In this document: in pieces, positions 1,209 through 63,545 of the stretch | Position numbering within the stretch: the first letter of the stretch is position 1 | How the letters are laid out: every line of letters begins with the position of its first letter | Source: Eledone cirrhosa | Lineage: Eukaryota | DNA length: 64,000 bases | Direction: 5' to 3' | Assembly (NCBI GenBank): GCA_964016885.1 | Contig: OZ024743.1 | Coordinates: forward strand, 29,140,001 to 29,204,000 | Program-made: the position numbers and the translations under genes | Notes under the pieces: model-generated | Seen by the model: only the letters and a program-made list of their open reading frames with translations | Told to the model about the DNA's origin: nothing | Databases searched by the model: none

Positions 1209-1382
1209 ATATATATATATATATATATATATATATATATATATATATATGCAAAAGTTTTATTTAAAATTGTTGGGTTACAACGAGTAAATATTTTATA
1301 ACTGATATAAAAGCACTCAACAGGTTTTGGAGTAGGTTTGCGATATTAAACAAATGGAAACTATATTTATAAAACCATATTT

Positions 1383-1446
1383 ATTTCATTATATATATTT
1401 CAGGGATATCATATTAAAAATATGGTATGCCTTCCTCAGACAAAAT
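1383..1446 (-). ncRNA. Hammerhead ribozyme in the Naiad 3' UTR/pLTR
   Basis: Minus strand: attttgt CTGAGGA aggcataccatat-tttta-atatgatatccct GAAA tatata TA atgaaat. Canonical core, long stem II with mismatches, palindromic stem III. Confidence 0.75.
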
Positions 1447-2985
1447 ACAATATATAAACCGTTTTATAAATAAATTTGACATACCTTAAACATTACAACT
1501 TCCATTTAAAAAGTTGATTTGGTAGTGAAAATGTTAAGGACAGTTAGAAAGAAAGACGAAGAGAAAAAAGAAGGAAAGTGTATAGTGCTAAGGACGAAGA
1601 GAAGAAGAAAGAAAATGTATAGTGCTAAGGACAGTTAGAGAGGAATACGAAGAAGATGAAGAGATGTATGTAAAGAAAAACAACAGAGCGAGATAGAGAG
1701 AGAGAGAGATATGGGAGAGAGAAATATATATTGAGGAAGTGAAAAATGATAGGCAGCTTGTGCACAGATGATCACCGTACAAATGAGAGATTAAGAAGGG
1801 AAGGGGGTACTGTAATTATTTATTTATTTATTTATTTATTTAGTTATAGTGTTAAGGATACGGAGAGAGATAAAGAAAATAAAAATAAATAAAGAGAGGT
1901 ATAGAGAGATATAGGTGGTGGGAGAAACGAGGTAGATCGAGTAATATCTATCATACGAGGTGGGAGAGATACAGTTAAATCAGCCGATACATAAATCATG
2001 TCAAGTGTAGAGGGAGGAGGAGAAGAAAATAGATATATTCAGAAGGAAATATTATGTTTCATCCATTTGAATTATCAATTCATATGAGTTAGGTATTATA
2101 ATGTAAATATCAATATTCATGAATGAGACACATATCAATAATGTGTGAAAAAATGAAAAAATAATGACCCTATGTTTAGTTTTAAAAATTCTTAGGTTTA
2201 TAATCAAAATCTGAGATAAAACTTCAAAAATACTGAAACACATAATTATATATATATTTTCATGAAAAAAAAAAAGAAAAAAAAAAAAGAGAAAAAAAAA
2301 AGAGAAAAAAGAGAAAAAAAAGAGAAGTTTATCTCAAATTCAAGTTGACAATTATAGACACACATGTGAATTTACGTGATCGGTTCTGTAAATTCTTATT
2401 TTTCATGAAAATCTTCATTGCGTTACAAAAAATTCCACCATACATATATGTATATACATATATATATAGACATAAAATATACATTAATATTAATAATAAT
2501 ATTCTTGCCCTCACTTACATGATTATCGTTCAAGCATAGAATAGACAACAGATATCAATATATTAAAAACGCCAAGAATATTTTCATCACTCCCCAGAGT
2601 ATCTAGGGACGTAAGAAAACATAGTATGCCACGCATATCAACCACAGAAAACCACCCTTCCAATTTATTTGACAATATATTGTCAAGTTCATTAGAAGCA
2701 ATCAAAATCAAAAGCAAACAGAACCAAAATTTTTCAACAAAACTTATTTAGCAGAAAACATTCAAAAAATTTATGGATACCCAGTTGTTCTACAAATGCT
2801 CTTATATTTATTATAGAGGTTTACCTAGCTTAAAAAATTATTCAATAGATTGGGACCATCATCATTTTAGGGTAGTTTAATTAATTTCATTAATTATATA
2901 CTCGTGAGGAAGGTTTTAAAAATTTAAGGAATCGAAAGATTTATCGCCAAGTTTCATAAATAGTTAAATTTCTTAAGTAAATATA

Positions 2986-3662
2986 CTACATTTTAAATTT
3001 ATATTTATATTTAAAAGTTGAGTTCAATCTATGTCTGCAGCAGCTGAATAAATTGGTCCGTAAATTAAGGGAATTTTTAGATTTTAGTATAAAGAATATC
3101 TCCTCCGCGCAGAGGTCACATGTCTCAGAAGAGGAATTAAAAGGAATCCCTTTTGAGACTATATTCCAAACCATCGAATATCCAACGTTATCATGTTTAA
3201 GTTGCCAGAGTAAGCCTGATAGTGATGTTGAAGATTTTTTATTTGGATCCGTGAAAGAAAATTCTTGTGATTATTATAGCGAAGTTTAAATTCTGTCGAG
3301 GTGGAACCAACATAATTAAAAGAATTTAAGTCAGTTTTAACATTACAGTTGTATATTATATTTTTAACTAAGCAATTGTTATTTAACGGACATTTAGATC
3401 TATCTCTACAGTTACAGTTGTTTACTTGAATATTGTTTAGGCTATTTTCGGTATTTTGGCTAGGTTTTAGATTCCTATTATTTATTCTATTAATATTTTG
3501 TGCAAAATTTTTGGTGGACGAGTATGTTAATTTTATAGTATGTCTATTGAAAATTGAGTGATACTTATGTGTTCTAGGGAAGCGTTTGTCAAGAGCATTA
3601 AAAAATAGTTTAGCGATGTGGGTTTTAATGTTTAGTGAGAAGGGGGGGGGGGGGCAAACCAT
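2986..3662 (-). pseudogene. GIY-YIG endonuclease portion of the same Naiad ORF (frameshifts at ~3642-3654 and ~3258-3262)
   Basis: PPFS...FP...IFN.HTIKLTYS, CNCR...CPL...CL, IIY...YVGST...FKLRYNNH. After the shift: SFTD...TSLSGLLWQLK...VWNI...CDLCAEE...LNLRTNLFSCCRH. Confidence 0.88.
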
Positions 3663-61545: not shown

Positions 61546-61661
61546 ATATATATATGTATATGTATATGTATATGTATATATATATATATATATATATATA
61601 TATATATATATATATATATATATATATATATATATATATATATATATATATATATATATAT

Positions 61662-61847
61662 CGAAGAAAATGTGGTAAGGAAGCAGATGGACTATAACGC
61701 ACCAAAGTACTCAATACTTAAGGTAGTAGAGTGGGTAATAGGAACAAGTATGACCCCGACGGCAGAGCTCAAGCCGTTTCGACGGCTAATTCTGGACTCT
61801 AGTTTCGACGGCTTGAGCTCTTCCGTCGGGGTCATACTTGTTCCTAT
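61662..61847 (-). mobile_element. Short fold-back insert with the 3' half of a hammerhead and a tail
   Basis: Inverted repeat 61739-61776 / ~61808-61846. Minus strand ccgtc GAAA cggc-ttgagctct-gccg TC ggggtc. Tail has TATTGAGTACT. TA flanked. Confidence 0.5.
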
Positions 61848-62889
61848 ATATATATATATATATATATATATTAGTTCATACCGGGTTCAATCGGGGGTAA
61901 CCACAGTAAGTAAGGTACTCAATACATAGCAGAGTATAAATATCTAATATATATATATATATATATATATATATTTCACCGTAATTTTTGACTAAAGAAA
62001 TTTTAGTCTTATAATGGGGTTTAGAACCCTCAGATAAATGGAAAAAGATGAGTTTTGACGTACATGTATATATATATATATATATATATATATATATATA
62101 TATATATATATATATATATATATATATATATATCATACATTGAGTTAGAAACTCAAAATAGTCTTTTACAATTAAATACATCAAAGAAAGAAATTTTTCC
62201 GAGCCGTGTAACATAATATAATTGAATATATGAGGGAGATGAACTCAGATATAAGTATATATGTGTTCCAATTGCAAAGGACCAAGTTAACTAGGTTGAA
62301 AAAAAATACTAACTTAATACCATATGGTTTGCCTGATTCGATTTAAAGTAATAAATCAATACTGATACATATATATATATGTATTAGTATTGGTGCTCTG
62401 AAATAACGATGTATATATGAATGTACGTTTAGCATATTTATGATATACTGTATGTTTATTTTAAAACATTTTGAAGGCCATTCGCTATGAATTTTAAAGT
62501 AGTGACTAACGTCACGTACCAAGTCTCGGTAAAAGCAAAGCGGAGTAATCGTCAGTCACCGTTTCTCACTTGTAAGTGGTTATCATGACTATATACCCCT
62601 TCGCTCCTGCCGAGAGTTATGGAAGCTGGATTCTTATAGAATTCCAGTAATGTTTATGAGCTGTTTAAACTCGTTAGCATACAGAGTTGTATATTATTGA
62701 ATATACTATACGTATATTCATATATATATATTCATATATATATATATATATATATATATATATATATATATATATATATATATATATATATATATATATA
62801 TATATATATATATATATATATATATATATATTAAGTGCACCAAACAGGCGAAATGAACTATAAATTAATATATATATATATATATATAG

Positions 62890-63545
62890 TTATGTAATAA
62901 ACAACAAAAATTTAGGATTCTACAAAACTTGAAAGCCACCTCAACTTGCCTGAACTCCAAGACCGAGATCTTCAGATGCTGTCCTGACCTGAAATCACAT
63001 CTGATCTGTAACTGGATTGACATTCCTACGATGACTCAACCACCTTGAACTTCTTCTCTGCTCTCTACGCCTTACATCCACTACGATTTTTATTACTCTC
63101 TGAACTCACTTTCTGTACTCTTATATTCTTTTTCTCCCTTATCTCCCCTTATATTTAAACTTTTTCCTATGTTATTTATTTTCCTTATTCCCCCCTACTT
63201 TCTAGCTTACCCTTTACATACCCACCTTTTTTATTTATAGATATTTATTTCTGTGTGTATGTATGTGTTGTGTATATGTGTATATGTGTATATATATATA
63301 TGTATATATATATGTGTATATAATTATATATATCTGTATGCGTAATTACTTACAGAATGATTTAATGTTTATTTTCATTGATTATTTGCTCTAGGAATAT
63401 GTTGAGTGCTCTAAATCAGCTATAAACATTTATAACTTTATCTATTTATTCATTTATTTATTATTTGTCGTATTCCCAACTATTTGTTTACCCCTTCCAC
63501 CTTTTTATTTTTATAAATACATATAATATTTATGTATCTTCTTAT
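62890..63545 (+). mobile_element. Heavily 5'-truncated Naiad (endonuclease C-terminus plus 3' UTR)
   Basis: 62890-63048 translates LCNKQQKFRIL...CLNSKTEIFRCCPDLKSHLICNW, matching the Naiad LC..EK..I...LN.R.E.F..C.H tail. GTTGAGTGCT at 63401-63410. TA flanked. Confidence 0.62.

Follow-up and report, generated by a model that had tools for sequence, protein, structure and literature searches.

Penelope-like elements (PLEs) of the Hydra clade are recognised by a reverse transcriptase (RT) with RW[KR] and DKT (a modified DKG) motifs, by CxCx5C, CxxC and CxH motifs, by a C-terminal endonuclease and by a hammerhead ribozyme, whereas Naiads, which likewise have pseudo-long terminal repeats (pLTRs), an inverted 5' arm, a tail and frequent (TA)n targeting, have the endonuclease at the N-terminus and DKA, and lack a canonical hammerhead (Craig et al. 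2021, PMC8557442). The same work left open how PLEs come to insert in tandem and inverted arrangements that bear a tail on one side only. The protein of a Poseidon PLE from Anolis, PAc, has been shown in vitro to nick and extend both DNA strands, with RT starting from two internal sites that bound the tail; it needs RNA 3' of these starts, and the binding motif has only been localised to 172 nucleotides (nt) (Frangieh et al. 2024, PMC11167929). Here, we analysed a window of 64,000 nt from the cephalopod Eledone cirrhosa (contig OZ024743.1, positions 29,140,001 to 29,204,000), which holds several families of (TA)n-inserted PLEs. A motif in their tails, pointed out in an earlier note on this window, was found to be one arm of a predicted bulged hairpin that occurs twice per element, each time a few nucleotides downstream of one of two precise insertion ends, and that probably sets two internal starts of reverse transcription.

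Judged by domain order and diagnostic motifs, the element bearing the large open reading frame (ORF) of the window is a Hydra-clade PLE. The Naiad label of the earlier note was thus not borne out, since the ORF carries a C-terminal endonuclease together with RWR, DKT and CxCx5C. Its motifs read RIRWR (R in place of the K of RWK) and SDKTN, and YRDD precedes the CxCx5C and GIY-YIG-type endonuclease region both in the window copy and in L004, a sister copy with a single open frame of 747 amino acids (aa), as it does in 93 of 105 long homologs; among 120 homologs, 103 have RW[KR] and 119 have DK[TS]. The cysteines of the linker and endonuclease, as read from the translations, are CNCRDRSKC, CDLC and CCRH, with none inside the core and no CCHH finger. 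No N-terminal endonuclease was found, the ORF beginning 37 aa before RW, and in place of the Naiad combination of DKA and no hammerhead both DKT and a hammerhead core are present. Such a core (CTGAnGA..GAAA with flanking stems) was found in families 1, 3 and 4. In family 5, the corresponding region (61745–61800, minus strand) holds no clear CTGAnGA core and a stable small stem-loop in its place; the ribozyme of this family is possibly a variant or lost.

Insertion at (TA)n was confirmed for the families examined, and they resemble the described Hydra clade in C-terminal endonuclease, motifs, hammerhead and targeting; they differ in size, reaching up to 4.1 kb with tails of 66–97 nt, as compared with generally under 3 kb and PLE tails of 30–40 bp (PMC8557442). 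Hydra-type ORFs were also linked to families 3, 4 and 5, and an ORF start to family 2. With 117 copies scored at 94–100% aa identity among 44,604 first-look candidates, family 1 appears young and abundant. The sole named homolog came from a cephalopod. A Pfam search did not recognise the ORF pieces, and an Rfam scan of the window gave no hammerhead among the 150 of 171 matches listed, which were microsatellite-type matches to microRNA families and two other sub-threshold matches. No relative was found in viral contigs, and a dimer prediction on residues 1–490 gave no verdict (score 0.00).

Six tail sites and a variant roughly 20 nt before the ORF start had been listed in the earlier note; all seven were recovered at the same coordinates and strands, the gap between the variant and the ATG at 5212 being 20 nt. 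The motif TGAGTGCT occurs nine times in the window, against 1.32 ± 1.02 expected (100 dinucleotide shuffles, none of which reached nine). Six of these matches lie within PLE ends, including 5324 and 5343, absent from the earlier list, and three lie outside PLEs, at 15797, 31841 and 33736. An 894-nt direct duplication (31385–32278 and 33301–34173, 95.5%) is the source of two of the latter. Across 800 kb of the same 3.0-Gb genome, sampled as 80 evenly spaced 10-kb pieces, GAGYRCT stood 30–90 nt before a (TA)n run in 43/234 cases, compared to a background of 4.4%; among control words, the reverse complement did so in 21/234, the reversed word in 2/135, the complement in 5/135, GAGRYCT in 4/180 and GTGYRCT in 7/294. 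Enriched in the window and placed before (TA)n above the control words, the motif is real and positioned.

The motif serves as 3' arm in a predicted hairpin of the form RCTC-[upper stem]-loop-NN-GAGY-RCY, in which RCTC pairs with GAGY, two nucleotides (one in family 4) bulge on the 3' side, the upper stem and loop are variable and RCY follows unpaired. Each element has two, one in the tail (hairpin 1) and one before the ATG (hairpin 2). The CTCCA or CTCTA previously seen upstream of the motif is indeed there, but it is the 5' arm of the hairpin and not a separate element, so that a linear motif describes the signal too narrowly. A descriptor of the hairpin matched eight times in the window, at the seven known sites and at a site overlooked before (61914–61935, minus strand), and at none of the three TGAGTGCT matches outside PLEs; in the 800-kb sample it gave 33 matches, against 2–12 in ten shuffles. 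The view that the elements sharing the motif are otherwise unalignable holds for most tails (p 0.04–0.77), but not for the pairs 1312/27245 and 27245/30083, whose regions before the hairpin are weakly alike (p about 0.007–0.01), nor for site 63402, a decayed piece of a subfamily related to that at site 1312 (75–86% identity). The site at 37840 is present, but as a tail it is incomplete: the window copy breaks off directly behind the motif, and sister copies continue for 37 nt more.

The hairpin extends well beyond this genome, and other animals provided the independent test. A scan of marine metagenomes yielded 77 Hydra-type loci. In 47 of them the sequence before the match start was searched for the hairpin, which matched twice in 20 loci, once in 15 and not at all in 12; six of the last 12 were not true ORF starts. 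The same scan gave no match inside ORFs, 0–5 in shuffles and 13 on the reverse strand; the matches in L281 and one of two in L248 were spurious, and the first match in L230 used a wrong 5' arm. Over 54 distinct metagenome hairpins, the register with a 2-nt bulge gave a mean of 2.35 pairs for the upper stem; the other registers gave 0, 0.06 and 0.19, and none of 500 shuffles exceeded 0.91. The upper stem opens with C-G in 39 of the 54 and with T-A in 12. At the base, G-C was present in 50 and T-A in two, and hairpin 1 of Eledone cirrhosa has A-T there. Pairing was scored by script rather than with a covariance model because two MAFFT alignments misplaced the short-loop members. Hammerhead-like cores with 120 nt of sequence downstream were followed by a hairpin in 42/58 cases; among the rest are cores that occur by chance within ORFs and copies terminating ahead of the hairpin. 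The distance from core to hairpin was 45–80 nt in 43 metagenome matches. Among metagenome hairpins, 49/52 have a TA 5–9 nt upstream.

Among the published consensi (PMC8557442 supplement), those of Hydra-2_Amil, Hydra-1_Ajap (both copies) and Hydra-2_Ajap, from coral and sea cucumber, contain the hairpin, and Hydra-1_Crog from a sea louse contains a variant with a swapped pair; relative to these, hairpin 1 has drifted to ACTC/GAGT in the window. Five 9-mers of the motif gave seven matches in that supplement, where line breaks can hide matches: four at Hydra ends, two inside Chlamys consensi and a single, internal one in a Naiad. The ends of the Naiad consensi in the file lack the hairpin. A kissing loop through AGYRCT, which is self-complementary through G-U, was considered and dropped because GAGCACT is the commonest form outside the Eledone cirrhosa genome.

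The two hairpins accompany two alternative 3' ends, a connection absent from the earlier note. Family 1 has two precise ends, a long one (1250) and a short one 91 nt upstream (1341), and the inverted arm uses the short one: 14 of 15 such inverted matches stop at 1341. From the short end it is 7 nt to hairpin 1, and from the long end 8 nt to hairpin 2; the latter hairpin comes after the long end only at the junction between pLTR and element body. In families 1, 2, 3 and 5, the long end is followed by hairpin 2 at a distance of 6–8 nt; for family 3 this hairpin is present in loci L121, L123 and L132 and for family 5, together with a Hydra-type ORF, in L139. Of the 312 ends joined to (TA)n in five families after de-duplication, 262 lie 5–14 nt 5' of a hairpin, with modes (short/long end) of 7/8, 8/8, 14 (an ambiguous TATATA)/7, 6/8 and 8/6 nt. 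Five TA units were demanded for an end call because internal TATATATA had mimicked family-1 ends, accounting for 83 apparent ends in an earlier count. In metagenome loci, five of eight (TA)n-joined ends lie 7–11 nt before a hairpin and two more before degenerate hairpins.

Since tail lengths differ between families (66–97 nt), the ends track the hairpins and not a fixed length, and the end-to-hairpin distance is the tightest constraint, as tail length, hammerhead-to-hairpin distance and the distance from hairpin 2 to the ATG (12–54 nt) all range wider. The proposal of a conserved cis signal under positional constraint was therefore upheld, with the signal standing before (TA)n, 45–80 nt after a hammerhead core and 6–8 nt after precise insertion ends. 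Of 85 two-armed insertions, in loci chosen mostly by tail queries, 73 combine a short and a long end, three have two long ends, one has two short ends and eight have an irregular end.

Hairpin 1 was also considered as a general RT stop, as the pLTR of the window copy starts there, and rejected: only one of 17 distinct pLTR 5' breakpoints does so. The 19-nt duplication at 5333–5351 (minus strand) and the pLTR remnant share their first base, at the 3' arm of hairpin 1; the duplication is atypical among sister copies.

From two covarying hairpins at a fixed distance from two precise ends, and from the pairing of short with long ends, we infer, by analogy with PAc, the RNA strand, binding by the element protein, priming and coupling on one RNA. 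Each hairpin probably binds the protein on the sense RNA, with RT starting at a UA about 6–8 nt upstream, which would give two internal starts; among the functions suggested in the earlier note, an RT recognition site fits best and a promoter is disfavoured. A transcript running from the upstream pLTR into the ORF, or a circle, would present site 1, hairpin 1, site 2 and hairpin 2 in this order. The hairpin would bring the UA to the active site of the RT, making it available for pairing with a nicked (TA)n primer, and the endonuclease would nick both strands of the (TA)n target. Priming by one nick at site 2 would yield an arm with a tail and priming by the other at site 1 an inverted arm without one; the two complementary DNAs (cDNAs), joined at their truncated far ends, would then form the head-to-head product with one short and one long end, and the tail would simply be the distance between the two hairpins.

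More tentatively, and with somewhat less than even confidence, all of this could be one concerted step, in which a complex of two RTs grips both hairpins of one RNA, primes both nicked (TA)n strands and builds the one-tailed head-to-head insertion; the sequence separating hairpin 1 from the long end could then be copied many times over in the fashion of telomerase, which would account for a 6.9-kb array in family 4. This array is found in a family-4 insertion (L379, G000:C4 about 80498900–80505850) and consists of a 30-nt unit with 183 exact probe matches and about 230 units. The unit corresponds to the interval from hairpin 1 to the long end; four units are present in L324, and unit variants occur in runs. 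It may have grown through repeat addition by the RT or through later slippage on a terminal direct repeat.

Several observations weigh against hairpin-positioned starts. The descriptor was composed after the window sites had been seen, and the predicted folding is weak: only one of the seven window hairpins folds better than its shuffles (z −2.8; others −1.2 to +0.7), and the proposed upper stem is missing from the minimum free energy (MFE) structure in three of seven. Evidence for the strand is thin, with two internal G-U against one A-C pair in 51 metagenome hairpins and an A-C in a hairpin-2 variant of family 1, although G-U is common in the hairpins of families 2, 3 and 6. No compact hairpin 2 was found in family 4, where the two arms stand 8 nt from the end but flank an 88-nt insert and are left unpaired in the MFE structure. 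Tail queries over-sample long ends, and the informative figure is hence that the second arm was short 73 times and long three times. The signal is also limited to a clade: only 12 of 37 inverted structures with a bounded tail, collected blind to the motif and counted by hand, carry GAGYRCY, so it is not a universal PLE signal. In the Poseidon assay, finally, both strands used the same start sites, whereas the arms here pair short with long, and RT started inside an AC-rich stem loop, not upstream of one (PMC11167929). PAc and the present families are alike in that two sites bound the tail and in that the PAc binding motif was inferred to lie in RNA spanning the pLTR-ORF junction; PAc belongs to another clade and starts within its ORF, while the hairpin here is duplicated and lies in the untranslated region (UTR) (PMC11167929).

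The 88-nt insert between the family-4 arms (loci L360 and L365–L367) contains an internal repeat, and a search for hairpin 2 of this family by the strict pattern gave only two chance-like matches. Other PLE families did not carry the signal. One abundant PLE family (L143, L156, L160, L167, L211 and L220) has 44–59-nt tails without GAGYRCY and a non-Hydra ORF (L220). In a further family (L301 and the flank of L068; L178, L202 and L213), what looks like a 28-nt tail is in fact a GCTC..TC-GAGC hairpin with a long loop, interrupted at an internal TATATA.

If the motif were instead read on DNA, in the pLTR or a single-stranded cDNA, by the GIY-YIG endonuclease nicking at the TA 6–8 nt upstream, the ends would be cleavage products and not RT starts. 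Such a role has precedents, as the Drosophila virilis Penelope endonuclease needed tail DNA for recognition (work cited in PMC11167929) and the Poseidon protein cut AT-rich DNA at the pLTR junction (PMC11167929); the ends also fall on TA, the target dinucleotide, and the sense-strand test is weak, with its two G-U against one A-C. We nevertheless consider it unlikely, because a covarying stem with a fixed one-sided bulge would be meaningless in duplex DNA and because the sole biochemical study mapped the tail borders to RT starts (PMC11167929). Somewhat more doubtful is a model in which the hairpins guide transcript cleavage immediately on their 5' side, creating two RNA 3' ends for ordinary end-primed reverse transcription. 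It predicts the same fixed distance between end and hairpin, and the element has a hammerhead 45–80 nt upstream as well, but the long arm could not be copied from an RNA that had been cut at the short site, and 73 of the 85 insertions do combine both ends; in the Poseidon assay, moreover, unprocessed RNA served as main substrate (PMC11167929).

It is quite improbable that the hairpin is a promoter element or a translation-control structure of the ORF with only an incidental tie to the ends: hairpin 2 always lies shortly before the ATG and PLE promoters are located in the pLTR (PMC8557442), but the distance to the start codon varies over 12–54 nt where that to the end is 6–8 nt, and hairpin 1 and the short end would be left unexplained. 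A second role of the hairpin in translational autoregulation may exist beside the first. A structure acting on an antisense transcript in a self-priming pathway, as proposed for head-to-head palindromes (PMC3846280), is the least credible option, for Watson-Crick stems could form on either strand but the pairs of families 2, 3 and 6 are G-U-compatible on the sense strand and the Poseidon protein used sense RNA (PMC11167929).

The features of the window are collected in Table 1. The insertions of families 2 and 3 (24883–30146) are two two-armed PLEs back to back that have the (TA)n run 27314–27375 in common; nesting was common in the retrieved loci. Adjoining the long end of family 1, at about 1097–1207, lies the tail of another PLE-like family without GAGYRCY (relatives in L145 and L220), and the ORF remnant linked to this family in L145 has a different, CCHH-type endonuclease. 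An interspersed repeat family of about 200 nt, probably resembling short interspersed nuclear elements, has many copies (10055–14740, 19751–20174, 31304–31495, 52513–52723, 55856–56125 and 59477–59698).

Table 1 PLE features of the 64,000-nt window. Positions are counted from its first nucleotide.
Feature	Position	Strand	Remarks
Hydra-clade PLE, family 1: short 5' pLTR remnant, ORF, 3' UTR, hammerhead, tail	1250..5351	-	between (TA)n runs
Family 1 hairpin 1 (ACTC..TT-GAGT-GCT)	1312..1333	-	7 nt 3' of short end 1341; long end 1250
Family 1 type I hammerhead-like core	1375..1445	-	by pattern and fold; about 64 nt upstream of hairpin 1
RT-then-endonuclease ORF (RIRWR, DKT, YRDD, CxCx5C linker, CxxC, CxH)	2986..5212	-	two frameshifts, near 3650 and 3255
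Family 1 hairpin 2 (GCTC..TT-GAGC-GCT)	5233..5253	-	8 nt 3' of long end at pLTR/body junction; 20 nt before ATG
77-nt pLTR remnant and 19-nt duplication of its first bases	5257..5351	-	remnant identical to element 3' end, begins at 3' arm of hairpin 1
Family 2 hairpin 1	27225..27253	+	long end 27313; inverted arm ends near 24883-24886; hairpin 2 in locus L336
Family 3 hairpin 1	30064..30091	+	long end 30146; inverted arm end 27376; endonuclease remnant 28141-28986
Family 4 hairpin 1, 1-nt bulge	37840..37864	-	copy ends after motif; Hydra-type ORF in locus L205
Family 5 hairpin 1	61706..61732	-	short end 61741 (inverted arm ends at 61844), long end 61661
Sixth-family hairpin, in a piece with tail only, flanked by (TA)n runs	61914..61935	-	sister copies in randomly sampled loci
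Decayed hairpin in fragment of family-1-related subfamily	63388..63410	+	no hammerhead core found nearby

Neither the class of element nor its tail nor internal initiation is new. Small, often bulged RNA structures bind an RT and position its template in other systems, namely the 3' stem-loops of long interspersed nuclear elements, hepadnaviral epsilon and the template-flanking elements of telomerase RNA. Those signals are single, whereas the Hydra hairpin is duplicated, and a duplicated signal specifying two starts, for the two strands of a target, is not known to us. In the open literature, neither the hairpin nor a duplicated start signal was found described, the search having covered neither subscription papers nor Repbase entries nor the supplement of PMC11167929, whose Figs S1–S2 concern the stem loop. 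The hairpin, or its link to the ends, is not mentioned in the consulted parts of PMC8557442, and no description of the hairpin appears in those of PMC11167929, PMC3846280, PMC13282606, PMC7229834 and bioRxiv 10.64898/2026.07.22.740005.

If hairpin-positioned starts are true, the twin hairpins would explain the long-puzzling one-sided tail of PLE insertions. A hairpin of roughly 25 nt, kept across cnidarians, echinoderms, arthropods and Eledone cirrhosa and standing 6–8 nt from each end, offers a precise handle for mutation: shifting or breaking one hairpin should shift or remove one arm. PLE RTs are the sister group of telomerase, and an RNA element that may position the template in these elements is therefore of evolutionary interest. 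For repeat annotation, the hairpin is a diagnostic of Hydra-clade ends, several such families being young and abundant in the Eledone cirrhosa genome.

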